A stretch of DNA of 64,000 bases from Amphiscolops sp. MND2022 (lineage: Eukaryota), in contig OZ076409.1 in the NCBI GenBank assembly GCA_964187785.1, positions 32,614,001 to 32,678,000 on the forward strand, read 5' to 3'. Within the stretch, counting starts at the first letter, position 1; each line of letters starts with the position of its first letter. Below, one piece after another: positions 24,356-56,852 of the stretch. The position numbers and the translations under genes were made by a program. Under the pieces are notes generated by a model. The model was not told the DNA's origin and did no database searches. It saw only the letters and a list, made by a program, of their open reading frames with translations.

Positions 24356-25610
24356 TGACAATTTTTCGATTCCCACTAATGCACTTGGAAAAGTTTGTCT
24401 AGTAATCTGACAATTGACGAAGCGCTGAGCAACTTCAAAGTCCCTCGATGTTGGCAAAAAGCTCGACTTCGCTGCTACTCTGATTTCTGCTGGCAACGAA
24501 CTTCTTATCTCTGAGTTGGGCACATTTACAACAGTTTAACAGTTTTACTTGTTGACGGGCTTGTGGGTGACCAAAGAGGCAAATCGTGTGAAGCACTTTA
24601 CGCAATCATAAATACATTTCCTTTGTGACTTGGCGTTCCTGCATCTATAAAAAACCAAGCAGAAACGTCGCTGTCTTTTGTCAAATGTGTCTGAAAGCCT
24701 CTGAACCAGATGCCCATTGATTCGATTCACCACTGAATGGCAAACGAAGCACTCAACGCGGTCATCTGTTTTGATTTTCCTCTCGCAATTCTTCTGAACT
24801 TTGGCAGGAGTTGCAGGGGACGTGGTGGCAAAACGCCAAATTGATTGGACATTGGGCTTGTGGACGTGTCCGCTGAACTTCGCGGTGAATGTTGAGCAGA
24901 AACCTCAAGTACTTCGGCGGGAAGGGGCAATTGGTGCTCCTCCGTATTGCTACAGAATGGGGGCTTGGTTGAGCGGCAACGTCGATTGTCGCTGTCTTCT
25001 TGGAAGCGCACGAAGGGCATTTGCAGTCAACACTGCCAGGTCAAAAGTAGTCATCTAAGTTGCATACTGTTAGTTCTTCCCCTCGCACCGACGCGGTTTT
25101 AGTCTTTATAAAGACTATGGTTGAATTTCTCTTACCACGACAAGTGTACTGGCTACTGGGAATTTGGTTCGCAGTTTTGATTTATGGAACTTGCTGGGCC
25201 TAACTTAACCATGTCGTTGATTCCCAGCCTTTTGAAGTAGGAAAACTGGCTGGATTCTGACAGCTGGACCTTCTTCACTTTAGCACCGAATCCTTTCAAA
25301 CCCCCTATTTCGATGTCCTTCTGAATGTCTTCTGTCGCTATCACAGCCATTTCTGAGAAATCAGTGTAGTTTCCATACGATGGTATTCGTACATAATTCA
25401 CAAACTCCATGCTCTGAATGTAACTTGTGTAGATCATTGAATACAATTTAGCGTGCTTTTTGCCGCTCGAAATCAGCTGCTCCTCTTTAGGGTCTTGACA
25501 GAGTTTGGGATTTGTGGTGAAAACATCGTCAATGAGCTGCTTGTTAATTTTTGCATCCAAAAACCCAGAATCTGCCAGGCTTCGTGGCAATGCGTCGTTA
25601 TCAAATAGTC
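24356..25610 (-). pseudogene. Suv4-20/KMT5B-like SET methyltransferase with post-SET cysteines, followed by a Zn-finger region; truncated at array C
   Basis: AVIATEDIQKD...LKG...QFSYF...LGPASSINQNCEPN, then after a frameshift QYTC...GEELTVCNLDDYF*PGSVDCKCPSC (compare Suv4-20 LGPAAFINHDCRPN...GEEIxCxYGxxFFG...CECxTC). Downstream NRINGHLVQ...FYR...YDCVKCFTRF...HK resembles the Zn finger at 31250-31534. Confidence 0.8.
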
Positions 25611-26889
25611 CTAAAAAACTTCGAAGTTAAATCTAAGACAATAATTTGCATTTCCAGCCTTTGTTTTGACGTTTGGCAGTTTTGGGTTTGGTTTGCTCGA
25701 ACTAAGCACTCATGAGAAGCAGTATTTGGCAAAAAGATGAAAAATACGGTTTTAAAAATACAGACGTTTTAAAACAGACTTTTCTTTTTGCTTACCGTTT
25801 CTTTTAGCTTATTGAAAATGAAGTGTTTCAAGCCGTTCAAAATGTTTTTAACATAAAACACGGTTTTGATTGAAAAAAACGGTTTCAATAACAACCCTCT
25901 TATAATTAATTTCGATTTACTTGTCTTTTTACTAGCTAAGTTACGTAATAATTTTGCAAAACAGGTGTTGAGGTGAACAGAAAAACTCACCTTTTTCCAA
26001 ATCAAATTGTTAGTGCAAAGTGGCAAATCAGATGCCATTTTTACTTTCATATTGAACGTAAAGTGCCATTTTAGAGCCGATGAAAAGATTAACAAAACGT
26101 TCAGAAGTTTAATTCTGTTTTAACAATATTTACCTTCTTGGTTTTTTCCGCTTTGTGGAATTCATTTTGAACGAGGCTCACTGTTACCCTCTTACACAGC
26201 TTGTCGTGATTGCGAATCGTTTCCAGGTCAACAGGGTAATCCATTAGAAGGACAGTTTCAGTGCTTGCATAACTGATGCACTGGACTACCGGGGGTCTTT
26301 CACGCGCCAGAACCTGGGTGAAGTTTGCCATTGCAAGGAAGAATGGGAGTGGGTTGGACTTCTCAGCATGTCTCCGGCAGTCCACATTTTCTAGCTCATC
26401 AACAAAGGTAATGAATGGCTCAGTAATTTGTCCGTTTTTGGACCCCTCAGATTGTCTTCCACAGTCTGCAGTTTCTGACTCTTTGATCTCTCAATGATAA
26501 ATATTGTTCTTTGTTCTTCATTGTTTTTTTTCTTTTGGGAAATCTACCGTGGAAAACAATGTGGTTTTCACAACTGATTTAGTTTTTTGTCAACCTTTCC
26601 GACCTACAAAACTTCAACAAAGTAAAATAAAGCATGAAAGTCATTTTTTTCAATGATTTGTTTTCGAAAGAAAAGTCTGGAGAATAGCAAATATAGTTTT
26701 CAAAAGTTCGTTTTTTCCTCATTTTCGCTTGTGTTTTGTTCAACAACCTTGTTTTGAGTGCCCCGGAGTGTTCTTTGTGGTTATCGTGAAGATTTTGAAG
26801 TGCTCTTCCTCTCAGTTGACGGAGCATTATAATCGATTGAGTTTTGAAATGAGAGATTGCGTTAAAGTGATTGAAAATTTCAGCGGAAT

Positions 26890-27215
26890 TGAGATTCAAG
26901 GTAGTTGATCGCAGAAGCAAAGTTCGTTCTGTGAAATAGAATTCGTTGAAATAAACTATCGGAACTATCGGAACTAAACTAACGTTTCTCAAATTTACTC
27001 ACGGATATAGTTAAGACTGTGAATTCCGAAAGAATAAAGATTCAAAGTAGTTGATCGCAAACGCAAAGTTGGTTCTGTGAAGTCGAATTGGTTGAACTAT
27101 TGGAGAAAAAATTTTCTCTCGTTTTTAGTTGTGTTAAGATTGAGTAGTTGTGTTCAGATTGAGATTTTTAAGGGGTTGAAGATTCAAAGTAGTTAATCGC
27201 AGAACCAAATGTGGT
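26890..27215 (+). repeat. Three-copy ~145-bp degenerate tandem repeat
   Basis: GATTCAA(A/G)GTAGTT(G/A)ATCGCA recurs at ~26893, ~27039 and ~27181. Confidence 0.75.
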
Positions 27216-27824
27216 TTTATGGGTGCTTTCGCGGACGTCTTCGATACTTATGTCCTGTCAAGTACTTGGTAATCCTTTTTTTGGTGTCAAGTACTCGACC
27301 CCTCTACGGGGCCTTCGGTCATTGTTGAATAATATGGAATATTTCATCACAATCAAAGATCCCCAAGCGTACTTTAATCGTTTAAATTTGCACTGATAAT
27401 TGCTTCCTTCCTAGTACCATGGTTGTGGCACAAGGCAGAGCTTTAAATTGTTACGCCGAGTAATTATAAATTAGTATGTCATAATCAACCAAACCACTGC
27501 CTACTTGGTTTGGTCACGTGACTAGGAAACAAGTTGAAGCAATTGCGAAGCCGTTTTGAACCCCAAAACAGTCATGGCGAATTATTGCAACTTGAGGTAA
27601 TTGCTAAAAGTCTTTTACGAGACTTGAGACGAGTTATAAAAAAGATAACCCTTTTACGAGTAACCATTCGTCAATTACTTGGTTACCCAAAAAATGACAA
27701 CAACAGTTATTCTTTCATTTATACTGTGAAAATCATCGTGAGTTGGCAAGATTGGTAAAAGTGACAAAAGGACCCAAAAAACATTTCGTTGCAAAACCAA
27801 ACTCAATTTTTGATATGAAAAATC

Positions 27825-28175
27825 CAATCGCGTTGTTATTTCATTGAAAACAGTCGAAATCACAGCGCGTTGTTATTTCATTGAAGACACTCGAAAGCAC
27901 GTCGCGTTGTTTTTCCCTTGAAATACTCGATATCACATCGCGTTGTTGTTTCATTGAAAACAATCGAAATCACACCGTGTCGTTATATCTTTGAAAAAAC
28001 TCAAAATCACACCGCGTTTTGTTATTTCATTGAAAGTACTCAAAGTCACACCGCGTTGTTCTTTCATTGAAAGACTCAAAATCACACCGCGTTTTGTTAT
28101 TCCATTGAAAGTACTCAAAGTCACACCGCGTTGTTATTTGATTGAAATACTCGAAATCACACTGCGTTTTTTCAC
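27825..28175 (-). repeat. Tandem array D of the repeat family, opposite orientation
   Basis: Units CTCGAAATCACACCGCGTTGTTATTTCATTGAAA are the reverse complement of the CAACGnGnTGTGATTTCGAG core of arrays A-C. Confidence 0.9.
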
Positions 28176-29847: not shown

Positions 29848-31842
29848 TTAGTATCCCAAACTCTTCATTACGTTGCAGACTTTTTTGACAGCTTTCTCAG
29901 CCAAAATGCTGGCATCCCTCTCACTGGCACTCTGGGCTTGGGCCAATTGTTTGAGCTCCCCACGTGGAATGTAGCGCATGCGGTCGCAAACTTGATGAAA
30001 CAGGAGAATGAGCTGTTTCCTCAGTGGATCGTCAGGGCCTTTGAATTTCAAAAGTTTGACACGAATCTCGGACCATATTTTGGCTTTCTTGGCAAGTGCG
30101 TCAACAGGTTCTTCTTTTGGTGGATTCTTCTTTTTGGCCTTCTTCGGTGGCTCGTACTCGTCAACATCTGGAAACGAGTCGTCATTCGTGAGTATAGGGT
30201 GTCGGATGCGCTGTTTGCTTTGTCCGAATCCTCTGTTCTGTTCTCCTCAGCTGCATCTGGGGTCACGGCGTCTCTGTCATGAATCTCTTCGTCGCATCGT
30301 TCCTCATTTTCATCTTCTCTAGCATTTATTTGATCCTCCACCTCCTCCTGAGGATCCTCAACCCCTGGCATGGGCTTTGGGGGGTCATCGTCCGCAACAT
30401 AACAGTTTTCGGGGTCCTCAATCAAGTTCAATTGTTTGTCGGGAAACTTTGTGATCTCTTCCGTTTTATGGTCTCCTTTAGGTACTTTGCTTGACAAGTG
30501 AATTTTTTGTTACTTGGATATGGAAACGCAAACTTTAGGGCCTCCCCATCTTTTTCTCGAACAAATTTTGCGATCCACTTGCGGTTTTGTTCAGTAATTC
30601 GAATGAAATTGGGGAAGTTGGACCCAGTTTTGTGCTCGAACGTTGTGAGGACTTTCTTATTCTTCATTTCATCAAAATCTTCTTTAGAAAGTTGCAACAA
30701 GGGTCCTATGCGGCAATTCGACTCCGAGTGCACCAGAAAGACCAGCAGACTCAGGTATTCCACATAAGTGAAAGCTTCCTGTGGGTGATTTTGCAGGAGT
30801 TCCTTGACCATTTGCCTGAGATGGGCAACTTGATACAGGTTGGGTACTTTGTCAAACCGCTGTATCATCCTGCTGTTGACTTCCTTTGCAGACTTTTTTG
30901 CTGTGCTTCGTAGTAGTGTCCTCAACTCTTCAGTGATCAAGCCGGGGTTGAAACGATACTCTTTCTGCTTGTAACACTTGCAATACTCAATCAGTCTAGA
31001 CAACTCGAAGAGGAACTTGCGCATGGTTTGGAAGGTGTAATTTTTCTCTAATTTAATCTGATTGAACGCAATTTTGAGGTGCATCGGCTTCCTGAAGTAT
31101 TTTGTCACATCCACAACTCTGATTAGGAATTTTTTTGGAAGCGTGTCAAGGGTTGATCTCCTGAATCAATTCGATTTCCATCGTATTCTGCGAGTAGACG
31201 ATGCACCTGGGAGATGTTTCCAGATGGTGTGGGTACATAGTCCTTGATGTCAATTGGATTCGTCCTTAGAATCCGCTCGCATACGAATAATTTGATGATT
31301 TTTGCAGGATTTTTTGTGCTTCTTTTTCCCCGTAAAACGTACACAACAGGTGTTACACTGATACACCGTTGACGTGCAGATTTGGGTCCTGTGAAACGGT
31401 AACAAAAAATTGTGATGCTTTTTTGAAAGCTGATGCGTTTTCGTCAGATGCTGTCTCATATGGGCATAATTCCTGGAGCAAATTAAACAGGCCTTGAGAC
31501 GATCCTGCTTCGGGCGGTTTCCTCTCAGAGCCAATTTTTTGCATATATCGGAACTTCATGCGGCTTGATTTTGTTTTTTTTTGGCACGACTGGCGTAGAT
31601 GTGGATTGTTCATTCTCAATTGATGGCTCGTTATCATTGTTTGGGACTTGTTCGGCGGTATTTTCTGCATTTTCGTTCTCTGCTTCTTCTAGCATCTGGC
31701 TGGTAACTCGACGAAGCGCATCGTTTGCAATTGGGGAATAACAAAGTCCAGCAACTTCTGTGAGGTTCGACAACTCATCGAATCTTCGTTCTGACATAAA
31801 TGTAAGCAAAGGTAATTTCGAAAATGGAAAAAGTTTCAACAA
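29848..31842 (-). pseudogene. C2H2 Zn finger + tyrosine recombinase gene relic (frameshifts, internal deletion)
   Basis: CLICSRNYAHMRQHLTKTH...YQCNTC Zn finger; a 228-aa ORF with ESNCRIGPLLQL (catalytic Arg), FEHKTG (Lys) and FAFP; the HxxR and Tyr region is missing; acidic linker and helical C-terminal domain follow. Confidence 0.8.
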
Positions 31843-33441: not shown

Positions 33442-33777
33442 AGTAGTAGTGGAAATCCCGATACTGGCCACAAAAACCCCAAAAATTAAAAGTACTCAAA
33501 ACCATTGATTTTAAGGACTTTTTAGAAAACATATCATTGCGAAAGCTCTCGCAAATCAATGGTTTCCCGAGACGGGCTGCAAAACCCCAAAAATTAAAAG
33601 TCCGCGAAGCTACGCCAAAACCATTGATTTTAAGGACTTTTTAGAAGACAAATTATCAAAAATAGTGTTTTACCATGAAGCAAAATTCACTAACCTCTAT
33701 AGTTTAATGCCAACGTTGCAACCAGCGCTAATGTACAACCAACGTTAATGCACAACCAACGTTAATGTACAACCAGC
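33442..33777 (+). repeat. Left TIR of Polinton 1
   Basis: Reverse complement of 48172-48507 with roughly 8-9 mismatches by eye; contains an internal ~110-bp direct duplication and 17-bp CAACGTTAATGYACAAC units. Confidence 0.97.
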
Positions 33778-33799
33778 AACAATGAAAAATAACTAATGA

Positions 33800-34226
33800 A
33801 TGAACTATTTATCATTCAAAGAATTTGTTGAAAAATACGGACTAAAAAACGAAGCAAATTCTAATGTAAAACTAAAAGAAATACTTGATAGGCTTGGTGC
33901 CTCCAGCAAATTAAATATTCCATGTGGAATATACATGAGAGATGATAAGTTTAACACTACCTGTGGTATAGTTAACTTACATCCCTCAGTGGGAACACAC
34001 TGGGTTATGTTTACAAATCAAAATTATTTTGATTCATATGGATGCCCACCCCCAACTAATATACTTAATCATATTAAAAATGGTATTTATTTCAGAATAT
34101 CAAATTCAGACCAACGACAGTTATTGCGCGGCGTATTGTTTATACACACTGTATCTCACAAATAAAATTGGGTTCAAAAATGTAGTACTAAATTTATACT
34201 ACCAAACTTTCAAACTTAATAAATGA
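33800..34226 (+). pseudogene. Adenain-type cysteine (maturation) protease, one frameshift
   Basis: GIVNLHPSVGTHWV...YFDSYG (His, Asp) and, in the shifted frame, QIQTNDSYCAAYC (Gln, Cys). Confidence 0.92.
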
Positions 34227-34459
34227 AGAAAATTAATAATTATTCAACTCAATATAAAAATATCTCGCACAGCTTCGCGACAGCTAACGCACAAAATTTC
34301 ACACACAGCTCCACAGAACAGTTTCACAATCACAATCAAAATCATGGAAAAAATACAACAAATTTGCGGAAGCTATCGCATAAGAAAACATTATCAAAAG
34401 ATAGGCAAGAATTTATAAATAACATTTCCGCTAGTGGATTCAAACAATTTAATCTATAA
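34223..34459 (+). CDS. Small basic Polinton protein, unknown function
   Basis: TAAATG start; C-terminus QEFINNISASGFKQF conserved in Polinton 2 (~56330-56375). Confidence 0.6.
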   Translation: MKKINNYSTQYKNISHSFATANAQNFTHSSTEQFHNHNQNHGKNTTNLRKLSHKKTLSKDRQEFINNISASGFKQFNL

Positions 34460-34462
34460 TAA

Positions 34463-35694
34463 AAGGATCTATCCACCTTCGTAACTTATGATAAAAAAGA
34501 ATCTCTTCTTTTAAGTATTGCAAAATCTAATCAAGAAATAGTTGAAAATACTCATTCTAAACCACAAGAAACTCTAGAATTTAAAATGAATAAACAAAAA
34601 GAATCTTTCTCATTTGATGTTCCTCTCATTTTAAAAGAAAAATGGATGATGGGAGTAACAAGCTTAGAAGTATACAACACTGTATATAACATTACTGAAA
34701 AGAATAACAAACTACAAATTATTCTGAATGATCAACAACTCAAAGAACTTAATCTTGATAGTGGATTAATACTGTTTGTTGAAGATTTTTACGTTACTTA
34801 TTTTGGTAAACCTTACACACCTAGTGAGTATAATGAATTTGTAGAAAAAGCCAATAAACTTATTACTAATAGTTATTCTAAAAAGAATAAACTCACTAGA
34901 ATAGATTTTGATTATCTAACAAAGATAGTCAAATCACTCAATGAAATATACAATAATCGCCTCAACCAGGAAACAATAAACCAAGAAAAATTAACCCAAG
35001 AAAAACTAAATCGAGAAAGAATAATTAAAGCATACAAAGATCACATAAAACAGGTAAAAATAAATTGGGAAGAAATAAAGTGGGAGGAAATAATTTTGGA
35101 GGAAACAACCCAAGAAAATCACGAAGATGAAGCAAACCAAATAAATCAAATAAATTTACCCCCTTTTGACATTGTTGAAAACGATTTCTTTAAAATTTAT
35201 CTAACACCAGGAGTTTATGAACTAGTTGATATAATAATGCTGTTAAACAAAAAATTAGTGAAAGTGATTATGATTTCAAATTTGATTTAATACCTGACAC
35301 AATATCAATGAAATCAGTTTTAACAACCTCAAACAATGTTCAATTTAACTCCAAGCTCAACACAGTGTTGGGCTTTACACACACAGTGTACCCACCCGGC
35401 ACTCACACTTCAGAAAAACCCTTCATGATAACAACCACCGATAAAGTTCATCTGAAGTGCGACTGCGTAGATGGTTCAATTGTTAATGGTATACGAGAAC
35501 AAATTTTATTTTCTTTCAATTTAAGCGCACCTCCCGGATATAAAATTATAAAAGAAACCACAACTGTTTTGTACAAATCAATTAACAAAACGCGACTGGA
35601 CACCATTCAATTTTTCCTTGAGGACTCTAATCATGATTCAGTTGATTTCAACGGGGAGACACTCACCTTCACAATTCAAATTATTAAAATATGA
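34463..35694 (+). pseudogene. Minor capsid (penton) protein with large internal insertion; start ATG>AAG, one frameshift
   Basis: N-terminal FDVPLIL..W.MGVTSLEVYNTVYNI; TPGVYEL; C-terminal LGF...KVHLKCDCVDGSIVNG..EQILFSF...PPGYKI...VDFNGETLTFTI, typical of Polinton penton/PX. Confidence 0.85.
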
Positions 35695-35748
35695 TGTTGG
35701 GCGATAGCTTTCACGAAGCTCCACAAAAATGATAATTTTTTCTAATAA

Positions 35749-36267
35749 ATGAGTTATAATAATTTTATGAATAATTCATATTGTGTTGGTGGAAAACATT
35801 ATTCTCCCACCACAAATATTTATGGAGATACTACAAACACTGGGATACAGATGGGCAGGCCCGTACACACATTACGTGGCAACTGCGTAACGTGTAACAG
35901 AAAGAAGAGTCTAATTGTATCAGAACGAACAATAGATGGGGAAGGATTGGGAGACTTTTTCAAACCTTTGGGCAAAATGGGCAAGAACGTTGGAAAGAAA
36001 ATACTCAATAGCCCAGGCCGTGCACTAGAAATAGCAGCAAATATTGGAACTGCAGCAGCACGTAAAAATCCTCGAATGATAGCTGCAACTGCTCCTGATA
36101 TTATAAAATTTGTTCATCAAGGGAAAGGGTTATACAAAGCTGAAGGGCTTCGCGAAGGTTTGTCAAGTAAAGGCAGCAAAGCAGGCAGCAAAGCAGCTAA
36201 CACAAGCAACACAAACAGAAAAGCAAGAACTAATGGTGAAGGCCTGTATCTGGGGAAAATCCACTAA
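35749..36267 (+). CDS. Putative virion core/membrane-active precursor with N-terminal Zn-ribbon (DUF5679-like) and protease-type G-x-G sites
   Basis: YCVGGKH...RGNCVTCNRKKSLIV; GEG/LGDFFKPLGKMGKNVGKKIL amphipathic helix; further QGKGL and NGEGL motifs; conserved in Polinton 2. Confidence 0.65.
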   Translation: MSYNNFMNNSYCVGGKHYSPTTNIYGDTTNTGIQMGRPVHTLRGNCVTCNRKKSLIVSERTIDGEGLGDFFKPLGKMGKNVGKKILNSPGRALEIAANIGTAAARKNPRMIAATAPDIIKFVHQGKGLYKAEGLREGLSSKGSKAGSKAANTSNTNRKARTNGEGLYLGKIH

Positions 36268-36280
36268 TTATACTTAATAA

Positions 36281-37317
36281 ATGTATTCAATTCACACCCG
36301 AGATGACTTGGAAAAATTAAAAAATTTACAAGAAACAAAATCTTTAGTACGCAAAGAAAGATTAAAAGAGAAACTAGGGAAGCAAGACTTTCATTACGAT
36401 ATGGAAGAAGTTTTTGAACCTGTTACTACAAAGCAGGTGGAATCAAATGAAAAACAACTACAAGCCATTGAAAATCAGACAAGAGCAATAGAACACAATA
36501 ATAATACTCTTCAAAATTCTATTAAAGAAGGAATAAAACAAAATAATGAAATTACAAATCATAACGCGGAAGCTATCGCGGAACTTCGCAATCAACTTCT
36601 TACAAGTCTTGTTAATTCCAACCAGGTTGATTCTAGTATTGTAAAAACAGTTTCTAATTTACTTAATGACAAAAACAAAAGTCAATTTAGTTTAGAACCA
36701 ATTACGCAGAGCTTCGCACAAGACAATCCTAATTTATTCACAATTAATCCCCATAACCCACAACAAGTACTAATTAAAGGTTCAACAATGACTTTCGAGA
36801 ATGGGAATTCATACAATCTAAATGACCCAGATCTTCAATTGTTTATAAGTAATACACAATTTGACAAACAAATGAATAACTGTGACAATTTATAACTTCT
36901 TAAATGATATGAAATATGATCTAAATTATGGAGATAAAAAATCAATCAGATATTAATTTATTAAAGAATTATACTCTCGCTATCAATTACAAGCACTTGA
37001 TTCACAGGGCTACACACAAGCACATGATTCACAGAGCCAATCACAGAGCTATACACAGGGCTTCACAGGAAGTGGATTAAATGGTGAAAGCTATCGCGAA
37101 ACTTCGCGAAGTTCCACACGAAGCTCCACACAACAGTACATTTTCCTCCCATCTGACCCAGACGAATTAGTGGATCAACTGAAACTACTTTATTTTGAAA
37201 AAGTTGGAGGAAATGACAACCCTCAGCTTAATGAACAAATTATTGCAATTATAGACAAGTTATTGGAGTATGAATGCATATCACCTTCTCAACACCAAAA
37301 TATACGATGCAACTTGA
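36281..37317 (+). pseudogene. Conserved Polinton virion-associated protein (coiled coil; C-terminal LPSDPDELVDQLKLL...GND motif), disrupted
   Basis: ORF 36281-36895 plus downstream frames reading GSGLNG...YIFLPSDPDELVDQLKLLYFEKVGGNDNPQLNEQIIAIIDKLLEYECIS; homolog at 57295-58220. Confidence 0.7.
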
Positions 37318-37330
37318 TCTCCTAATCTCC

Positions 37331-38390
37331 TCAATTACTTAAAGGATCAGTTTGTGGATTAAAGATCTTGTAATTTGGATTAGATTCATTACAAATCCTG
37401 TACCTACTCCCATTTTTATCTTCCAATCTGTTTATTAAAAGGTAGTTGAATTTTTCGTTCCATGCTTCTCTGCACAAACTTTTGAATTCCTCATAAGACA
37501 TATCAAAACCTGATATGTCCCTATGAATATGTCTTACATCTTTCAGTGTTTGTTGAAATAAAATTTTTATATTCGAATTGTTTCTAACTGTCTTTTTTGG
37601 TGCATCAAAATAACTCTGACATAAATAATAAACATCACAAGATTTGTGTCTTCCCCTAGTAAAAAATGGATCAATCAATTTCTGGTTGGAGTCTAACATA
37701 TCATCAAATACTACACAACACCCCCTATACTCTTCCAAATCCCCCACATTTTCTTCCACTTCTATTCCTTGAATATAAAGCTCCACATCCTCATATTGTT
37801 CCGGACTCCTTGTAATGATACGAATTTGTTTCTCTGGATCTTCCAAACGAATCAATCGTAATTTATTCAACAACAAATGAGTCTTACCACAAAATGATGG
37901 CCCAACTATTAATGTTCTATTAGTTTCGTTCACACCACTATTAGCATTAGCTCCCGCATTATCATCATTAGCGATAGCTTTCGCGATAGCTTTCGCGTTA
38001 GCTTCCGCATTATTATTATTATTATTATTGTGTGAAGACTAACCTCGTGGTAACTCTCGCTGTAGCTCTCGTGATAGCTGTCGCGATAGCTGTCGCGGAA
38101 GCAAATCACCCCCAGTATGCTGATTATAGTGCTGATAATAATTATAGTGTTGTTTATAGTGTTGCTTCTTGACGTGTGTCCTTAAATAACTCTTATTTAA
38201 TTCCTTATTACAAAATTCACAACTCACCTTTTTATTAAAACACACTTTGCATGAAGAGTATATTTTACCATTTTTGTATGAATAAAAGGTGTTACAATTC
38301 TTCATAATATTACATTCCTTACATCTTTTTTTTACTACAATCATCACACAAACTTTGTTCACTACTTTTATTACAAATTAAGCAATTCAT
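37331..38390 (-). pseudogene. Packaging ATPase 1 (A32/FtsK-like) with N-terminal Cys/His zinc-finger region
   Basis: Walker A GPSFCGKT, Walker B VVFDD, FFTRGRH, LCQSYF..VRNN. The Zn-finger ORF 38039-38362 is in the same frame, separated by one TAG; the likely start TAAATG at 38390 gives MNCLICNK...CDDC. Confidence 0.9.
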
Positions 38391-38399
38391 TTATTTAGT

Positions 38400-38665
38400 A
38401 AAAAATCACTTAATTCCTCTATTAATCACTATGTAATCACTATGTAATCACTAAGCAAAATCACTAAGAATCACTAAGGTTTCACTAAGTGTCTCTAAGA
38501 GTATTTATTTCTCTAAGATTAAAGATTATAGTGAAATTTAGTGAAAATAAATGCTCTTAGTGAAACCTTAGTGAAACCTTAGTGATTTAGTGAGAAATTT
38601 AGAGATCACTAAATTCCTCTAAGAATCTCTAATTTTCTCTAAACTTCTCTAAGAATCACTATATT
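38400..38665. promoter_or_regulatory. Intergenic array of (T)CACTAA/CTCTAA and TTAGTG motifs forming a long imperfect hairpin
   Basis: AATCACTAAGGTTTCACTAAG...AAGAGTATTTATTT (38469-38516) is the reverse complement of 38538-38587; a degraded version lies at the same position in Polinton 2 (59900-60025). Confidence 0.6.
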
Positions 38666-38740
38666 TTTGCGATAGCTTCCGCTAATTTTTTTTGTTAATT
38701 TCTTGCGATAGCTTCCGCGATAGCTTCCGCTAATTTTTCG

Positions 38741-39955
38741 TTAATTATTCAGTTCATTTTTAGTAAAACTTTTTGCATGATCATAAATTAAATTTTTAAA
38801 GTCCTCTTTAACTGAGTCACTAATTAGTGGTTTTTGCATACGCTCAACGTAGTTGTCTATTTTGGATTCATTTACTCTGATGTTATTTTGTTTGCAATAG
38901 GCTACATAATAATAAGCTATGTTGAGTGGTGTTTTTTCAATTGTCTGGTCGGACATTTCCTCAAGAAATTTTTGAGTCTGTTGTATTCATCACCAGTGAA
39001 AAAGTAACTTTCATAAGCAACAAGTTGTTCTGGACCCCATTTACTTCGTTTGCTCGAATCATAAATTAACTTGTACTTGTTGTCTAATACCTTGTATTTC
39101 TGACTCCTTGTGTCAAATTCAATTATACCATGTTCTAACAGATCGCCGTAGTATTTCCAATTAAACCCGTCTTTGATCGCGGAAGCTAACGCATAAGTTT
39201 GTACAATCGACTCGAAGAAATTATCTGGGTTATTATTGTTAAGTATATTTTGAAGCAATTTTCCCTCACGATTGGAAGAACATCCTTTGCATAGTGAGTG
39301 AGATAAATTACTTGAATCCCCATGTGTCTACCATATCTAAATAAGTCTTCTACTTTTGTTTTAGGACTTTTTATGCACCTGCATCATCCAGTACAACAAT
39401 TTTATTAGTAAGTGATTCAATACTAACTTTCTCCAACTGCAGTAGTGGTACAAAATTTTGAGAGGGAAACTCACGTTCATCTCGCCCGAAAACTACGTAA
39501 GTTCTTTGGCGAAGCTCTGCAACTTGTGCCAAATAATGCTTTAAAAAACTTGTCTTCCCAGAGCCACTACTACCATAAATTATGAAGTGGGAATTGCCAT
39601 GAACTTCAGCTTTACGCGTAGCTTCGTGGGATTCTTTAATTTCCTGTTCGCGCGTAGCTTCGCGTTCCTGGTTCGTCAGATGAGAGTATTTGAACCCTGC
39701 AAATTGTAGTAGTTTTTTATAAATTGTTTTAAACTGTCTAGGGCGAATATAATTCCAATATATTACAACAATAAAACCTATAAATATAATTAAACATACA
39801 ATAAACATAGGATTTGTGATTACTTTATAGATTCGTGTTTTCTGATACCAATACAGTTTGTTGGCTACCGCGCCGTCTTCCGCGCCACCTACCGCGCCGG
39901 CTCCTTCCCCTTGATAATTATTTCTATAGCTCTGCAAGCAATAATCATTATTCAT
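38741..39955 (-). pseudogene. Second A32/FtsK-like ATPase with N-terminal transmembrane helix; frameshifts
   Basis: TM segment PMFIVCLIIFIGFIVVIYW; Walker A YGSSGSGKT; Walker B VVLDD; after a 1-bp deletion KVEDLFRYGRHMGIQVIYLTH...IVREN; continues through ORFs 38917-39258 and 38741-38956. Confidence 0.85.
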
Positions 39956-39978
39956 TTATTTATAAAAAATTGATATAA

Positions 39979-40908
39979 ATGAATCAAAATACAGGGCTTC
40001 GCAAGAAAGAAATTGTTACAGAAATATTCTCTCCTGTAATCAAGAAGTTTCAAGGAATTCAAATACAAACTCACTATAAAGATGAATGTTGAAGTATCGA
40101 TTTAATTGATCACTCAAGTTTAAGCAAATACAACAAAAACTACAAGTTTATTTTCACAATAATTGACAACCATACTAAATATGCATGGGCGATTCCCCTC
40201 AAAGATAAATCAGGAAAAAGTACGACTACTGCATTAAAAAGTCTCATTGAAAAAGAGAAGAGAAAACCACACAAAATATGGAGTGATAGAGGTAAAGAGA
40301 TTTACAACACAACATTTTTACACTATTTAAAAGAGCAAAACATTCAAATTTATTCAACTAATTCAGATTTGAAGGCTGTTTTTGTTGAACGTTTCAATAG
40401 AACACTTCTGGACTTAATCAAAGAACCAATGTTAATTGAGGGTAAAGGTAACTGGTTGAATCACCTTGATGCTGCTTTGGATAAGTATAATGAAAGGGTG
40501 CATGGTACAACAAAAATGACACCTTTTGAAATGAGTTTTTATACACTAATACGTGCGACAGCTACCGCAGCTTCGCCTAACAATAAGAACAATGCAGCAA
40601 AGCTGGCTGCAACGCTGTCTTCGCATAACTTGCACACAGCTTCGCCCAAGTTCCAAGTGGGGGACTTTGTAAGAGTTCCTGACAAAAGGAATATTTATTC
40701 AAAAGGTTATACAACAAATTGGAATAGAGAACTTTTTAAAATACACAGCATCAACAAAACAAACCCAGTAACATACACTCTAAATGATGAAAATGGAGAA
40801 ATTATTCAAGGAAAATACTATGAACATGAATTTTTAAGAAGCATATTCGACTTTGACTCTAACAACAAAACGTTAGAAAGTATGAATATTTTCCACAAGT
40901 TTGAGTAG
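39979..40908 (+). pseudogene. Retroviral-like (rve) DDE integrase with one in-frame TGA (40090)
   Basis: SIDLID (D), IWSDRGKE (D), VERFNRTL (E), FQVGDFVR, KGYTTNW; frame continuous from ATG 39979 except one TGA where Polinton 2 has TGG. Confidence 0.95.
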
Positions 40909-40945
40909 TGTTCCACGTAGTTTCACAGTAATTTTTTTATTATAA

Positions 40946-42178
40946 ATGAACACAGATATGTTTTCTTTAAAAAATAAATACACTCTTGAAAAACCTATTC
41001 ATAAAATTGATTTTATTAAATATAGTCCAAGTAGTTTGACGACAATTAACAATACAAACTCGAATACTACAATTAGTTTCCCAAGAGAAGATGCATACAT
41101 ATGTTTACAAAATAGTTTCATAAGTCTAGAATTTGAATTACTTAAAAACAACGACTCAAGATACACCAACGGCGATGAAATTGGATTGGTTAACTTTGGG
41201 CCAATCTCTCTATTTAGTGAAGCCAAATTAACAACTTCTAGTGGGAAACACTTAGAAAAAGTTGACAATTTGCACTTGATTTCTTTAATGTACAAGTGTT
41301 TGACAAGCACTAGTCAAACTTCCCAGTTATTGTATGGGTTTGAAGAAAATTTGAGTGTCAGAAGACAAGAACTAACAAACAACAAAAATGAGAAAGGAAC
41401 GTTTTGTGAGAATAAAACTAAAAGACTTGTTTGGATTTGCTGATCAAGAAAAAATAACTTATGGGTTGGGCTACACATTAACTCTCAAACGGAACACTAA
41501 CAATGACACCATTTTAAGAAGTGTTGGAGTGGATGCTGCAAAAGTGGTTATTAAAGACATTGGTTGGTATATCCCACACTATGTTCCCAGTATCGAAAAC
41601 CAACAACTTGTCATGGACCAAATTCTAAATAAAGATCCAAATGAATTGAGTTACACGGAACGAATTAGTTTTAGAAAAGATGTTAACACGAATTCGAATT
41701 GGACATTTGAATTAGGATCTTCGGGAACATCGACTCCAACTTTTGTGATTGTTGGATTTCAAGCTAGAAATAAAATTGATTCTCAGGTTCATGATAATGC
41801 AGTGTTTGACCGGTTGCCAATTAGTAATGCTGTTTGTAAAATAGGATCAGAAAATATCCCGGTGATCGGATAGAATGTGATTACGACCGCGACAAATATG
41901 ATCAAGCATACAGTGAAATTGAAAACTTTTATCACTTGAAAAGCGAAACTAACTTACTCAATCCCTTCATTGATTTGAAAAAATTCAGAACAAATTATAA
42001 TTTTCATGTATTTGACCTCAGCAAACAAAAAGATATCATTGCGAGTCAACCAATCCGTTTAGAGTTTAAATTTAATGCTGCCATTGATGTAGCAGATTTC
42101 ATAGCTTATGCACTTGTATGAACCCCAGAACTAATAAGTATTAGTAGTGATGGGCAAAGGCATTTTGACCTCATTTGA
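40946..42178 (+). pseudogene. Major capsid protein (double jelly-roll, hexon/PY-like), frameshifts and a stop
   Basis: Consecutive ORFs 40946-41443, 41388-41873 and 41936-42121 total ~410 aa; motifs LFSEAKL...LEKV, WYIPHYVPS, PTFVIVGFQ, HVFDLSKQ, IRLEFKF match Polinton MCPs. Confidence 0.85.
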
Positions 42179-42358
42179 TTTGATATGAGAGGAATGATGA
42201 ATCATAGATTAATAATTATAAATGATAATAAATGATAATGATAATATTAGAATAAATGATGATAATAAATGATGATAATAAATGATATTTCTATTTATAA
42301 AAGATGTGTGTGAAAGCTATCGCGAAAGCTATCGCGAAGCTGTGCGTCACGATAGTTA

Positions 42359-45300
42359 TCACAATAAATGGGCCCGATCACTTATCAGATTTAAAAGCTG
42401 TTGATGATTCAATTTTTCTTTCAGAGTCCAAATGTTATAGTATATTTCTTCATCACTCAATCCATCACTCAGTTTGGTGTAATACAAACCAACTAATTTT
42501 ATACAAAGTATACAAGGACAATCACCTTTTTGTGTGTGTTTATCCCATGATAAACTTTGTATTGGATTCAAGTACATACGCTTGTCATCAAAAGGATTCA
42601 AAGCTAGCTTATCTTGTTTCTGAACAGTTAGGTTGTGAGCATTACTTCTAATAGAATAATTAGTTTCAGTTGTTGTTTCAGAGTTAAATAATGAATTTAT
42701 AAATTGTGAATAAATTGGTGTATGTTGTATTCCTTTTTGTTTTGACATTTGCGTTAGCTTTTGCGTTGCTTTCTGAACTGTGCTTCCATAGCTAAAAGAA
42801 TATGATTTAGATCTCAAAGCTACGAAGTTGTCTAATTCAATAATTGGTGATGTTTCTATTTTCATTTTACCTATAACTTTCTTGTTAATAGAATTGTTCA
42901 ACTCATGACTTGGGTCGAGCTCGCTGAAATCAAAATCATCTTTGAAGTATTCCAAATCATTTATAAGGTCTCTAGTTTTAATACTTAGATTGAATGAGTC
43001 TGTATCCATGTAATGCAGTTTGACGTCTGTGTTGTAGTATGGCTGCAATTTGTGATAATAAAACTCATACAATAACAACTTACTCAGTTCTAAAACACTA
43101 AACCCCAAGTATATTGGTTTATCAAAAATTACTTTTTCCTTATCTAACTTGTAAACACTGAATTCGGAGTAATGATTAGTGATTCCTTTAAAGCTTAACT
43201 TCGATTGTCTTTTTATTATTTGATCAATATTGGTGTGGGGGATAAACAATAAATTAGTCCGGTCTCTAACATTTTGCATAGTCTTACCAAAGAAAGCGTT
43301 GTTCATTAATTTGTAGAGGTCCTTCTCAAAGTTTGTTTTTGCTTTGGTGCGTTTTTGTGTGTTATGATTAATGTATTTTTCTAACCAAAGTGATTGTTTG
43401 AACCGGTAGATTGTGTGAATCTTTGTTACTTTCATCCCGATCTGGGTGTAAAACTTGAACATCCTGTAGTGCATCATATAATTATATTTATTTGTTAGGT
43501 CACACATAAGTTTCTCGGTTGGTTTGTAGTTGGATTGTTTTACACTGTTCATGTATTCTGAGAAAAGATTTGGATCAGCTTTTGTTTGATCAGGACAAAG
43601 TGGAAAGTTTTCGGTTTTTTCTTTAATTTCTGCTGGATATTCTAAATCACATTCTATAAAGTATCCAAATTCATTGTCATCTGGTGTATTCAAAATGTCT
43701 TCTGTAATTTCTTTCGTCAGTGTAGAATCAGATTCGTGACAGTTCTGCGCGAAGCTACGCATCTTTTAAACGTCTCCAGTAGGAAGGTATTGACTCATTG
43801 CCCATCCATACAAGTTATTTGCAACAATGTACAGTAATTAATATTTTCATTTGACTCAATAAATCTGGGTCCCATTACACTTGAAATTCCTCCGCGAATA
43901 TTATTTTCAAGTAGTAATAACAACTGTTTGTCTTTTATGAAATCTAATTTAATTTTAGTAAGTTTTAAACCAGCTTTCCATGTATAACCAGGTAAAGAGT
44001 AACTGTACAAAGGATTGATGCCGTATTCAAGTGTAGACTTCTCAACAAAGTTTTCGAACACGTCAGTGAGTTGTAGTACATCCATTTTTAAGTACAATTC
44101 TGTTAGTTCTTGTGCTGTTGTAATGTTGTAAGTGTCAATCAATTGTTGGGTTCTTTTTATATCATCCTCACATGGGTAAGATTGTGTTAATGTTGACCAA
44201 TAGTCCTCTTTTGTTAGATTTAGTGCGAAGCTGTGTGGTTCATGTAGGTTGCTAAGATTGAATTTTTCGTATGGATAAGCTAGTTTTTTCTTTAAAAAAA
44301 CATCAGTTAGGCCTTCATTTTGCATATAAGGAAAATCATTTAATGATGTTATAAGTTTTTGTAGACTACTACTCAAAAATCTGTATGAGTCTAAAAACCT
44401 TAAACAACCTACTTGCACACTTACATAATTTTCCATTGACGTTGGTATAATGTTTATTGGTAACTTTAGATTATAAGCTGATGTTAAGAGTTCTTCAAAA
44501 ATTAAATGACAATCATAACCACTGAAATTATGGAAAAATATAGGAACAAACGAACTTGACTTTTTTTACAATTTAAATTACATTTGTTGTGGGCTGCTCC
44601 TCGGTACTTGCCTGTAAGATGATCATGATCTCGAACGTTATGCGAAGCTTCGCCCTCACCGTCTAACTTTCGTTCGCAAAGCCAACACACTTTGGATTGT
44701 TGGAATGATTGGTGTTCTTCAGGAGTTATTTCAAGAGGTAAATTTGTTTCAAAGTAGTTACTAGCAATGTTTTCTAGAGTCAACATTTCATTTACAAACC
44801 ATGTTACACACGATTCACCAAAGTATGAGCTGTAATTATTACCAAATGGTGAAATTATATAAAATCCTACTGCAATTGGAATTTGTTTAAATAATACTTT
44901 GGGCGCAGCTTCGCGGTCGTCTGTTGGTTGATTAATACATTCAAAATCTGCATATACTCTTATTGGTATGGGAACTTTCATATGATAATCTTCGAACTTT
45001 AAGTGATCCTTCCAACTGAATGTGATATTAGTTGGTTGTTGTTTTTGACAACAGTCAATGTGTTGACTGAGAATATCCTCAGAACTAAATGCAGTTAGGC
45101 ATCTTCTACACACCCATTTCATGTGCGAATCCTTATTTATTAGACAATGCAATTTTGTTATTAAGCAATAGTGATTTTGATATAATAATAAATCTATTTG
45201 TGGTTGATCATAGTTTGTGTTGAAATGGATTGGTGTTAAAACTGTTTTTACGTTTAAATACATTTACGTTTAAATTATTTAAGTTTTTGAACTTGGGAAT

Positions 45301-46197
45301 ATCTTTAACTTTCATGGGGAATTCTAAACCATTTAAATTGAGTTTGTTTGTGTGCATTGAAAAATTTGATGTTCTATTTTTATGATCCTCAACGGGAAAA
45401 AGGTGTGCTAGGATGCACCACAAAAAGCAAAATTGATCATCTTTTTTTATATTTATAATTGATTCATTATTCCTTTATTTTTCTGGCAACTCAACCCACG
45501 AAGAAGCTTGAATATCATTGACTTTATAAATTTCTAATATAACATTGATAATACCGTTTAACACAAAACCTGATCCTTCTAATTGTTCATCATCTAATTT
45601 CTGCATTAATATGTTGTGAATATTTGGGTTTGTGCCGAAGGCAATCTGTGTGTGATTGTAATTAAAATCTGATTTAACCCATTTGTGAAATACGTTTTCT
45701 TCTCCATTAACTATTTTCAAAAACTTAGCTAAATAACTCAATTGGAACTTGTATCGGGGAAAGTAATTTTTATTTAGTAAATCATTAATCTGTTCTTCAA
45801 GATGATTTGTTGGATTTACTACTCTCAGTTTAATGTATGTTTTTTCATTCACAATTATTTTTACGTTAGTTCCAGAATCATGTAGTGTATTACCAAATGT
45901 GTTTTTTGTAGTGTTATTTTGACTTCTTAACGTGTGAATTTCACTTTGGAAATGTCTTGAATTACTTATATATTTACCACAATCTTCACACCAAATTTGT
46001 GTAGCTTCGCGTTGTTGTTTGGTTTTGTTTTTATGTTCATCTGAATTTAGATGATTAGACTTGTCAGACAATGGCATAAATGTATTACATTTTTTACAAT
46101 GATATTGATTTAATTTTTGTAAATGTTTTATTGATTTTAGATGATCAGACTTGTAAGTTTTTTTATAATCAGAATTGCAAATACTGCAGTTCTCCAT
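42359..46197 (-). pseudogene. Protein-primed family B DNA polymerase with N-terminal Zn fingers, TP/vOTU-like region and endonuclease VII-like insertion; several frameshifts
   Basis: ExoI VYADFEC, ExoII FHNFSGYD, FLDSYRFL, ExoIII YLKMD; PolA YIVANNLYGWAM (Asp>Val), PolB KLMNNAFFGK, PolC YMDTDS; CWLC...VRDHDHLTGKYRGAAHNKCN insertion; DQFCFLWCI...HYCLI. Confidence 0.95.
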
Positions 46198-46309
46198 TTA
46201 TTTATAATAAATTTATGAATTTAATAGCAGCATAATTTTCAATAGTATATTTTTCAATTATTAGTGTTAATTTTCATTTTATTTTTAATGTTAAAATTGA
46301 ATAAATTAA

Positions 46310-46990
46310 TTATAAAAAATTGTGTGGTTTAAGTGGTATTGTTGGTGGTGTATATGAAGCTACTTGTGATTTTGTATGCGAAGCTGTGTGCGAAGCTGTG
46401 CGCGAAGCTGCGCGTGATTTTGTGTGTGAAGCTGTGTTAGCTGTCGCGCGCGAAGCTACCTGATAATTTTCAAATTGAGTCACAAATCGGTGATATTCTT
46501 TTTCATCTATATGATTATCTTTTAGGCTAGTGACATAAAGTTGTCTAAAGTCGTCAAGAGTCTTCTGAATAATAGTGTACTTAAGTTTATAATTTTGCTC
46601 TTTTTTCTCCAAATAACTGGAACAAATCTTAACAACAATACCAGTTGTACAACCAACTCCTGCAGCGATTGGAACAACTATAATACCCACACCAGTAATA
46701 CTTAGTGAGATTGATGCTGAAGTTGTTCCAATCACTATAATGCCATCGAGGGAGTTAATTAGGTTATTTATCAGCTTGTATTTGTTGTATTTCTGTTTGT
46801 ATTTCTTTTCTTCCATTTCATAATATTTCATCATTAGACTAATGTTTTGAATAGAATTATTGAAACTATTTACTTTTTGTAATTCGCTTTGCAACGCGCT
46901 ATGCAATCGCTTGTTTATCGTTGATTCTACATCATATGGTTTGGGGGGAGAGGCCGTTGGGGTCAGGGAGGGATAGAGTTTTTGTTCCAT
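46310..46990 (-). CDS. Conserved membrane-associated Polinton/adintovirus protein (resembles the ORF annotated gasderminX)
   Basis: Intact 226 aa; LYPSL N-terminus, hydrophobic hairpin GIIVIGTTSASISLSITGVGIIVVPIAAGVG, C-terminal SLKDNHIDEKEY; homolog at 63600-64000. The name is by recall only. Confidence 0.65.
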   Translation of the reverse strand: MEQKLYPSLTPTASPPKPYDVESTINKRLHSALQSELQKVNSFNNSIQNISLMMKYYEMEEKKYKQKYNKYKLINNLINSLDGIIVIGTTSASISLSITGVGIIVVPIAAGVGCTTGIVVKICSSYLEKKEQNYKLKYTIIQKTLDDFRQLYVTSLKDNHIDEKEYHRFVTQFENYQVASRATANTASHTKSRAASRTASHTASHTKSQVASYTPPTIPLKPHNFL

Positions 46991-46993
46991 TTA

Positions 46994-47954
46994 TTAATCA
47001 TATAAAATGAAATTTATTTCCGTTGGTGTTAATTTCATTCTGTGTTTCATATCAACAAGGTCTTTATAGGAATCTTTTTTCAATGACTCCAGAATTGATT
47101 GTCTGGTAGAATATTCTAAATTAGACAGATAAAATTCACCATCTGAAGTAGGTATTGTTTTTCCATACTTTTCCTTTAAATAGGATTCACTAAAAGTTAG
47201 ATAATTTGCAAAAACTTGATCTTTATTGGGAAAGGAAACGAACAAACCTTTGTCATAAAGGAGTTGAATTATGTTGTTAGTTATAGTAATTTTATTTTGA
47301 TCTAGGCTATCAAAAATTTTAATAATTTCATTTTCATTTAAAATCATTCCAGCTTGACCCACTGAACTCAGAAACTTTAAGTTACGGACTGTTAACATTT
47401 CAAAACTATTGTTGTGTATTATATTTAGTACCTCATTTACTAAAGCAATTCTTTGTTCGGCGAAAGATTTTTTCATTTTTTGTTCTAATTTAATTTTGGT
47501 TTTTGAAAGGTCTGAAAACTGGGAATAAATATCATTAATTAACTTTGTGTTTAAAAAAACATCTTGAATTTCCTGTGGGTCTAGTGTTTGATGCGCCTTC
47601 GCGATAGCTATCGCGTCTAGCATTTTTTCTTCTACTTGATTTTCTATGTCATTTTCAAAATCGCGTTGCAAATCTTCTTTCAATTTGGAATGTGTTATTT
47701 GGGCTAATTTTTCTTGACTTTTATCATATCTTTTAGCTTCTGATATTCCCTCAGTTTTAGCTGTTCACTAGAATAACCAAACTTATGAAGAGACGGAGTT
47801 TCATACATTTATTAAGATGAAAAAGTTGAAAAATACAAAACCCATAGGCATGCCATTGGTATTGGTATACATATGGTAAACTCAAAGCCCATCGGGAGTC
47901 CGTTCCACTAAGAGTTTCCACAGCAGGGATTATCCTTTTTAAGAACTGTGCCAT
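46994..47954 (-). pseudogene. Helical protein of unknown function
   Basis: 229-aa ORF plus upstream fragment; C-terminus (TSDGEFYL..LEYSTRQ...YKDLVD.KHRMKLT.TE.NFIL) conserved in Polinton 2 at 63420-63594. Confidence 0.65.
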
Positions 47955-48171
47955 TGGTGATTATTCTCCCATAGCATGTAAGTTGTAACAAAGACTGGGG
48001 GACGTTGGATAGAAGTGAACCCCAAACACTCCGGCCGAAGACTTAACTTTAGTCAATGCTATAACCACTAAGCTATGGGAGACAAATCAATGTTAGTTGT
48101 AGTTATATAAGAATAACGTATGCGCCGGTACATTAACGCTGGTTGTACATAAACGCTGGTTGTGCATTAAC

Positions 48172-48507
48172 GTTGGTTGTACATTAACGCTGGTTGTGCA
48201 TTAACGTTGGTTGTACATTAGCGCTGGTTGCAACGTTGGCATTAAACTATAGAGGTTAGTGAATTTTGCTTCATGGTAAAAAACTATTTTTGATGATTTG
48301 TCGTCTAAAAAGTCCTTAAAATCAATGGTTTTGGCGTAGCTTCGCGGACTTTTAATTTTTGGGGTTTTGCGGCCCGTCTCGGAAAACCATTGATTTGCGA
48401 GAGCTTTCGCAATGATTTGTTTTCTGAAAAGTCCTTAAAATCAATGGTTTTGAGTACTTTTAATTTTTGGGGTTTTTGTGGCCAGTATCGGGATTTCCAC
48501 TACTACT
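48172..48507 (-). repeat. Right TIR of Polinton 1
   Basis: Matches the left TIR; the 17-bp unit array extends further inward (to ~48128). Confidence 0.97.
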
Positions 48508-51520: not shown

Positions 51521-51670
51521 TAGAACTTTTGACAAAATTTCTGAACATGTCATGTTTCAAAATTGGCTGATTTTGTTGCACCAGAGGGTACCGTTACATC
51601 ACCTAGTCGCTCGAATACGTGCTTCACGAGCAAGAGGTTGTTTGTTCAAATACTACTACAGACGAATTTT

Positions 51671-52256
51671 TAGTCGGCGCATTTTGTCAAAATGAGCCCA
51701 ACTATTACAGTGGCAAGTTTTTTTTTCGTCAGACCACATAATGTATGCGTAGTGGACACTTTTTACAGAACTACTAAACTACTGGACCGGCAAGCGGAAA
51801 CGCATCTAAGTCAGTGAAAAAGGTCCCCTTTCGTGTATTCAATTGTTAACGTAAGATACAAAACCGGACGGGACTACAGGGCCCCCCGTTGAATTTTTTT
51901 CAGCACTGTGCGACTTTTTTCCGAATTCTTTTTTGTCGCCAAAGGGTCCCCCTTCAAGTTTTTTGATATTTGGCAGCAAACTGAAGTTTCAAAAAGCCCA
52001 AAGGGTCTCCCCTTTCAAGTTTTTTGGCACTATGAGACTGTTTCAAAATTCTCATTTTTCGTTTTTTTTTCGAAAACTTCTCCAAAAAAGTTTTCGAAAT
52101 TTTTTTTAATGTCTCCAAAGGGTCCTCCTTCAATTTTTGATATTTTGCAACAAACTGGATTTTCAAAAAGTCGAAAGAGTCCCCTTTTACCATTTTAAAA
52201 ATTTTGCGTTTTTTGAGCCTTAGATATAGCGCCGACTTTAGACGTTCCCGTCTTGT
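51671..52256 (+). mobile_element. HINE/DINE-1-like element, copy 2
   Basis: Sub-TIRs AGTCGGCGC / GCGCCGACT, a 5' partial inverted repeat, 3' stem-loop AGACG-TTCC-CGTCT, T-run flanks, no TSD, internal repeats. Confidence 0.8.
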
Positions 52257-56790: not shown

Positions 56791-56852
56791 TTCTAATACA
56801 AACCAAAGGTTTGTGCGAAGCTTAGAAGAAATCAGAAAATTTTTTCCAATAA

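Follow-up and report, generated by a model that had tools for sequence, protein, structure and literature searches.

Genomic setting of the element

A Polinton/Maverick element (element 1) was identified at positions 33442-48507 of the window, the term used here for the whole 64,000-nucleotide stretch of DNA that was analysed (Amphiscolops sp. MND2022, contig OZ076409.1). Both ends of the element are present and several of its genes are broken. The terminal inverted repeats (TIRs) at 33442-33789 (plus strand) and 48160-48507 (minus strand) are 348 nt long and 96% complementary, and each contains one TCACTAA site. The element has AGTAGT termini and a 6-bp target-site duplication (AACTAC), which are the AGT-type ends and 6-bp duplication of Polinton/Maverick elements.

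The gene set of element 1 comprises a protease, a minor capsid protein, an integrase, a double jelly-roll capsid protein and a protein-primed DNA polymerase (PolB), and thus includes the protein-primed PolB and rve integrase that mark Polinton/Maverick elements. The integrase matched the Pfam family rve (E 1.7e-9) and the capsid protein is of the double jelly-roll type (Pfam, E 2.2e-8). PolB, which is a fragment, matched DNA_pol_B_2 below the cut-off (E 3.8e-5) and was recovered by tblastn with the PolB proteins of L015 and L021 (E 1e-115). The minor capsid protein and the protease showed weak matches to L021 only (E 9e-5 and 2e-5, respectively). The TIRs, target-site duplication, PolB, rve integrase and double jelly-roll capsid agree with the Polinton setting proposed earlier by a sequence-only reading of this DNA.

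The IMG/VR contig L021 (positions 3-14587), which encodes PolB, a protease, both capsid proteins and a single ATPase of the Gln type, is the closest free relative of element 1 found in this analysis. Zinc fingers at the N-terminus and a domain resembling endonuclease VII (Pfam E 3.2e-6) are also encoded in the PolB region of element 1 (44502-46197, minus strand). A Pfam search recognised no envelope glycoprotein or internal-membrane module in element 1. Two further proteins, neither of them matched in Pfam or PHROGs, are candidates for membrane activity: one of 226 aa that contains a long hydrophobic stretch (46310-46990, minus strand) and one of 172 aa that is basic and contains an amphipathic segment (35749-36267, plus strand).

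A second element (element 2, 55730-62101) is a degraded and truncated relative of element 1, with about 70% nucleotide identity, and is collinear with it from protease to integrase. Long inverted repeats of a host repeat family (51663-52257 and 62657-63422) bracket element 2. The element flanks look eukaryotic, with repeats and an exon-like transporter fragment. Elsewhere in the window, a 2584-nt unit is repeated three times in tandem at positions 1-8000, with 97-98% identity between the copies, several 37-nt satellite arrays lie in both orientations at 16917-28168, and an open reading frame at 30428-31165 (minus strand) gives the impression, from its sequence, of a tyrosine-recombinase fragment.

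The two ATPase genes

Two tandem ATPase genes, as the sequence-only reading had placed them, occupy positions 37331-39955 of the window on the minus strand, in the order ATPase 2 (39955-38741), a gap of 350 nt and ATPase 1 (38390-37331). ATPase 1 consists of N-terminal zinc fingers, a low-complexity linker and an A32-class ATPase with a Gln sensor. The copy in the window carries the motifs GPSFCGKT, VVFDD, TRGRH and YLCQ, and is interrupted by one frameshift near the start and one in-frame stop between the fingers and the ATPase. ATPase 2 (38741-39955) consists of a single N-terminal membrane helix, an A32-class ATPase with a His sensor and a conserved C-terminal domain. Its helix is predicted at residues 49-67 (39755-39811, minus strand), with a Kyte-Doolittle hydropathy of 2.74 over 19 residues. 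The motifs GSSGSGKT, VVLDD, RYGRH and IYLTH are followed by a C-terminal extension. Walker A lies at 39551-39574, and the arginine finger and sensor (RYGRH and IYLTH) lie at 39294-39338, both on the minus strand, in the same register as GRH-x9-Q of ATPase 1. Comparison with natural relatives by tblastn located three frameshifts in the window copy of ATPase 2, because of which its motifs fall in different frames. Walker A, Walker B and the RGRH/RYGRH arginine-finger motif, which the earlier reading had reported for both ATPases, are all present.

Remnants of both genes also recur in element 2, as had been claimed, and are more degraded than in element 1. The ATPase 2 remnant lies at 60108 to about 61060 and the ATPase 1 remnant at 58362-59887, both on the minus strand. 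The latter includes a partial tandem duplication of the finger-ATPase 1 gene with a spacing of 597 nt, the copies of which are 95% identical. Comparison of elements 1 and 2 gave a dN/dS of 0.16 over 209 codons for ATPase 2 (upper bootstrap bound 0.27) and of 0.14 over 184 codons for ATPase 1 (upper bound 0.25), at a dS of 1.4-1.6, which is near saturation. Both ATPase genes are under purifying selection.

Class of the two ATPases

ATPase 2 contains the Walker A, Walker B, arginine finger and polar sensor of the FtsK/HerA-A32 class. The Pfam family Pox_A32 (PF04665) scored above the cut-off in proteins P0004, P0052 and P0121-P0123, and was matched by 21 of 22 diverse members of the ATPase 2 family. 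AlphaFold models of P0004 and of the distant member P0280 (mean pLDDT 60.6 and 77.8, respectively) had viral A32-type ATPases as their first matches, and entries from IVa2, Klosneuvirinae and Mimiviridae were among the fold matches of ATPase 2. The best solved structure was STIV2 B204 (4kfr; Z 15.8, rmsd 2.6 A over 167 residues), followed by VirB4 (Z 14.7), HerA (14.3), TcpA (13.6) and FtsK (12.2). The Pfam families FtsK_SpoIIIE and TrwB_AAD_bind matched ATPase 2 below the cut-off and in the Walker A region only, searches of PHROGs and of PDB sequences gave Walker A matches only, and a search of Rfam gave no match. The profile and fold matches to the A32/FtsK-HerA class rule out a different P-loop class for ATPase 2.

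ATPase 1 likewise has Walker A, Walker B, the arginine finger and a Gln sensor. Its match to Pox_A32 was below the cut-off (E 3.6e-4), and its profile matched the ATPase of the Polinton-like virus (PLV) L021 (E 7e-17). A profile comparison between ATPase 1 and ATPase 2 aligned 113 columns at 27%.

Close natural relatives

Since both genes are broken in the window copy, the finger fusion and the membrane anchor were checked in natural relatives. A 194-aa first piece of ATPase 2 served as the query, and 125 longer proteins were obtained among 2774 candidates. The best 120 of these 125 are 341-416 aa long and 49-91% identical, all come from ENA, and their source contigs are mostly tens to hundreds of kb in size. 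For ATPase 1, 540 relatives were obtained among 1660 candidates.

The N-terminal hydrophobic helix attributed to ATPase 2 lies within the same open reading frame in all of the best 120 relatives (19-residue window at least 2.28, median 2.83), so the helix as a separate open reading frame is ruled out by these intact proteins. The highest such window among the best 120 of the 540 ATPase 1 relatives was 1.69. The helix lies upstream of a strict match to Walker A in 110 of the best 120 ATPase 2 relatives, the strict pattern having been missed in the other 10, and a second hydrophobic window was found in none of the 120. The C-terminal side of the helix is the more positive in 115/120, and an N-out/C-in topology is therefore predicted.

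The earlier observation that His replaces the usual Gln in ATPase 2 extends to 115 of the best 120 relatives, in the register GRH-x9; the family majority at this site is LAH, and the T of IYLTH is a minority variant. In the same register the sensor is Gln in 112 of the best 120 relatives of ATPase 1. The fusion of zinc fingers to ATPase 1 was likewise found in natural proteins, with at least two CxxC pairs, Walker A and GRH in one open reading frame in 93 of the best 120. The C-terminal extension noted in ATPase 2 is a conserved domain: column conservation in 86 relatives was 0.94 for this domain, 0.89 for the core, 0.87 for the helix region and 0.40 for the linker. The ESM Atlas gave no recognised relative of the domain (best 0.76).

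The best-120 lists of the two ATPases have 25 of 119 distinct source-contig sizes in common (shift control: mean 0.023, maximum 1), equal size being a proxy for the same contig that says nothing on adjacency. One of the common source contigs, of 15,099 nt, is element-sized. In 23 unambiguous pairs the distance matrices of ATPase 1 and ATPase 2 were correlated (Mantel rho 0.54, p 0.0001), and all four motifs are kept in both proteins in 18 of the pairs. Two ATPases are standard within the Polinton family of element 1. The close ATPase family may come from one single host assembly.

Distant relatives and phylogeny

Among 1.84 billion representatives, a profile search found 312 matches at E 0.001, and most of the 150 of these that were listed are fragments of the close ATPase 2 family. 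An additional search gave 15 matches. From these searches and cluster look-ups a distant set of 28 proteins was picked by hand, mostly full-length and including some near-duplicates. The sensor His is present in all 28 and a hydrophobic window of at least 2.3 precedes Walker A in 25; two of the three exceptions are shorter calls, for which the full cluster member has the helix. Common to these distant proteins are the C-terminal domain and, downstream of the helix, an F-x-G-[FY] motif. In 22 diverse members the Lys of Walker A, the DD, the arginine finger and the His show little or no variation. The distant relatives share 28-63% core identity with P0004, and ATPase 1 shares 22-24%.

In three core trees, which are built with few references (6-8 IMG/VR proteins) and have long branches, the ATPase 2 family forms one group (support 99/94, 92/88 and 86/96), and ATPase 1, on a long branch, groups with Gln-type Polinton/PLV ATPases (88-90). 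P0124 and L005 are absent from the first tree because they did not fit the trimming pattern, and L005 and L027 were omitted from the third. ATPase 2 falls outside the clade that three virophage-type ATPases form (100/99). A recent duplication is ruled out by the identity of about 23% between ATPase 1 and ATPase 2. AU tests did not reject a single clade of the two (p 0.086 and 0.148), and the two genes may go back to an old duplication. ATPase 2 belongs to a deep, apparently undescribed membrane-anchored subfamily of A32 ATPases.

The sequence-only reading had pointed to the His of ATPase 2 in place of the usual Gln. This His is not a special mark, since three virophage-type ATPases (L002, L004 and L008, with VYH or VFH) and a poxvirus-like ATPase on a 245-kb contig also have His.

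Locus searches with either ATPase or with PolB gave no true relative in viral contigs, genome contigs and a first metagenome scan, and one locus search gave only virophage-type and giant-virus ATPases, which are without the helix. One candidate, L001, proved to be an unrelated AAA+ protein of a giant virus.

The intergenic repeat array and distant loci

The gap between the two ATPase genes of element 1 contains a repeat array that is absent from the earlier account of this DNA. At 38426-38661 the array has 16 exact copies of TC[A/T]CTAA, arranged as six on the plus strand, six on the minus strand and four on the plus strand, mostly spaced by 10-13 nt. The 350-nt gap thus holds 16 of the 47 TC[A/T]CTAA sites of the window, and outside the two ATPase gaps there are at most two sites per 350 nt. 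A shorter array of five sites (two plus, three minus) lies in the same place in element 2 (59905-60004). The pattern was picked after the array had been seen and its Poisson value is therefore inflated; the fair tests are the recurrence in element 2 and an unbiased scan of 350-nt tiles, in which the array tile has the densest 6-mer repeat of element 1 (15 copies, the next tile having 8) and ties for first in element 2 (6 copies). The array is a candidate zinc-finger binding site or packaging signal. It may also be an operator or promoter element of ATPase 1, because it lies directly upstream of this gene.

DNA was obtained for two distant loci, L009 and L010 (2 of 262 candidate stretches), and in both a multi-zinc-finger gene adjoins an ATPase of the anchored family, the gene context of the distant members resting on these two short contigs. 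The metagenomic locus L009 (275-3178) carries a multi-zinc-finger gene, an array and a 513-aa anchored ATPase, in that order. The array between the finger gene and the ATPase consists of seven copies of a 20-nt palindrome with TCAACTAA. An upstream open reading frame of L009 has a motif that we take to be that of PLV fibre-like proteins. In L010 (2-1219), the anchored-family ATPase is followed by a stand-alone 214-aa multi-zinc-finger gene. The finger genes of both loci end without a fused ATPase, and their fingers show a weak likeness to those of ATPase 1 (E 0.002; best domain 0.02) under heavy composition bias.

Possible roles of the two ATPases

Both genes occur family-wide with their motifs kept, they travel together, and the array lies between them in both elements. 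The reading favoured here, tentatively and at a little under an even chance, is that the two ATPases and the array form one DNA-packaging module in which ATPase 1 recognises the array and ATPase 2 is a pump held at the membrane. The zinc fingers of ATPase 1 would bind the intergenic array much as IVa2 of adenovirus is linked to packaging repeats. ATPase 2 would be an ATP-driven DNA pump held at the membrane where particles assemble, with its helix as the predicted anchor and the ATPase predicted on the cytosolic or nucleoplasmic side. We infer the ATPase activity, a pathway shared by the two proteins and the choice of membrane. The earlier suggestion of a second, membrane-associated motor is upheld in part: purifying selection and the retention of the catalytic motifs speak for a functional second motor at the membrane, and packaging, egress and DNA transfer are not told apart.

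According to one rival account, ATPase 2 derives from a separate virus lineage that uses a membrane and has no other packaging motor, and it was acquired with the finger gene and the array. ATPase 1 would be the Polinton's own ATPase and would now serve chiefly to regulate by DNA binding, with the array as its operator. This is less likely than the favoured reading. ATPase 2 is nearer to distant metagenomic proteins (28-63%) than to ATPase 1 (22-24%), the trees recover a single ATPase 2 group (86-99), with ATPase 1 beside the Gln-type Polinton/PLV ATPases (88-90), and the finger genes of L009 and L010 lack an ATPase fusion. A mainly regulatory ATPase 1 sits poorly, however, with the retention of Walker A, DD, GRH and Gln in most of its relatives (Gln in 112 of the best 120) and its dN/dS of 0.14, and the AU tests (p 0.086 and 0.148) leave a clade of the two ATPases unrejected. 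It is also conceivable, though distinctly less probable, that ATPase 2 works independently of capsid filling, as a pump for element DNA across the cell or nuclear membrane similar to coupling proteins or inovirus gp1, with the finger-bound array as its loading site. FtsK and the conjugative coupling proteins likewise combine an N-terminal anchor with an FtsK/HerA motor in the cytosol, the structure scores of VirB4, HerA, TcpA and FtsK are Z 12-15, and finger gene and array are linked to the ATPase in distant relatives. However, ATPase 2 has one helix only, viral packaging ATPases are its best matches in both sequence and structure, the TrwB and FtsK Pfam scores are below the cut-off and confined to Walker A, and element 1 has a full capsid set and no recognised channel or relaxase gene.

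Slightly less probable again is a role without DNA translocation, as a membrane-tethered scaffold or nucleotide switch (an assembly or egress factor, or a host-interaction protein). Such a role would suit a protein that is most conserved in a C-terminal domain (0.94) for which no relative was recognised, and in which the sensor Gln is replaced by His. Against it, the Walker A Lys, DD, arginine finger and His are (nearly) invariant in the 22 diverse members, His is shared with virophage-type packaging ATPases, and the FtsK/HerA sensor is described, in the available part of PMC11703096, as a polar residue that is mostly glutamine. Finally, both genes are broken in both window copies, as would be expected if the pair were a recent duplicate or pseudogene fragments joined by chance, but this explanation is scarcely credible and is already refuted by more than 100 uninterrupted natural relatives of each gene; the identity of about 23% between the ATPases, the purifying selection and the deep family of the same layout also speak against it.

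A wider proposal, itself rather unlikely, is that ATPase 2 represents an undescribed and widespread lineage of viral DNA pumps with a membrane anchor, which gives Polinton-type elements, together with a finger adaptor and an array, a membrane route for DNA. If true, this route (packaging through a host membrane or extrusion across it) would be a missing mechanism for Polinton exit from the cell or nucleus.

Comparison with known systems

Element 1 resembles the described Polinton/Maverick elements (adintoviruses) in its protein-primed PolB, rve integrase, protease and capsid genes, and its ATPases share with their packaging ATPase (Pox_A32) the FtsK/HerA-A32 core, with Walker A, hhhhDD, GRH and a polar sensor. 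It differs from them in having two ATPases, of which one is anchored and the other fused to fingers. Some Polintons in Repbase may carry an annotated additional ATPase; if so, a pair of ATPases would be less novel, but the anchored family would be no less so. Among PLV/Polinton-like loci with an A32 gene, 5 of 5 (two of them near-copies) have one ATPase, without a hydrophobic helix. One ATPase per Polinton element is given in the available portions of PMC8097293, PMC10748475, PMC8502044, PMC3671162 and PMC4642659. A full-text literature search found no description of a Polinton with two ATPases or an anchored ATPase in the accessible parts of its sources, which included 10.64898/2026.06.19.733378, 10.1101/2024.03.25.586562, PMC10120064, PMC8877843 and 10.1101/2025.02.07.637071. 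Dual ATPases are already standard within the family of element 1, and no report of them was found for Polintons generally.

Several A32 paralogues per genome are a feature that element 1 shares with giant viruses such as medusavirus, which has three A32-like ATPase genes, two of them in virions (PMC6450098, in part). Giant viruses have genomes of hundreds of kb and an internal membrane, whereas element 1 is a 15-kb integrating element, and the excerpted text of PMC6450098 describes no N-terminal anchor, finger fusion or array.

STIV/STIV2 B204 and PRD1 P9 serve in packaging through a membrane, and B204 is the best structure match of ATPase 2. Membrane attachment of the STIV and PRD1 ATPases is via separate proteins. 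B204 and P9 consist of a soluble motor domain only, in contrast to the anchored ATPase 2, according to the portion of PMC11703096 at hand. The same portion states that viral FtsK/HerA packaging ATPases are found in viruses that move DNA through a lipid membrane, and that the viral members are mostly a bare motor domain, with membrane segments in filamentous phages.

Inovirus gp1/Zot, FtsK/SpoIIIE and the coupling proteins (TrwB and TcpA) are membrane-anchored motors of the FtsK/HerA class (Z 10-14). In inovirus gp1 the helix comes after the ATPase. FtsK and the coupling proteins have multi-pass anchors and extra domains, whereas ATPase 2 is anchored by a single N-terminal helix and its C-terminal domain is unrelated to theirs; the multi-pass membrane domain of FtsK/SpoIIIE and type IV coupling proteins is absent from ATPase 2. 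Adenovirus IVa2 is a packaging ATPase tied to a repeated cis signal, the packaging A-repeats. IVa2 is not known to have zinc fingers or an anchor, and in adenovirus the signal is found at an end of the genome, whereas the array of element 1 is internal and flanked by the two ATPase genes.

According to PMC8097293 and PMC10748475, particles of Maverick-Polintons have yet to be observed, and the proposed module touches the open question of how these elements select, package and export their DNA. The finger-fused ATPase, the array and the anchored ATPase would be concrete parts for DNA selection and membrane coupling in a 15-kb element. The sensor His is shared by virophage-type ATPases, and several A32 paralogues also occur in giant viruses. 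The anchored, His-sensor A32 subfamily, paired in a Polinton with a finger-fused ATPase and an array, is real and family-wide, and the phased array between the two ATPase genes and the finger-gene neighbours of the distant relatives are new here. An anchored, His-sensor branch is thereby added to the A32 family, whose members have been described, except in filamentous phages, as minimal soluble motors.
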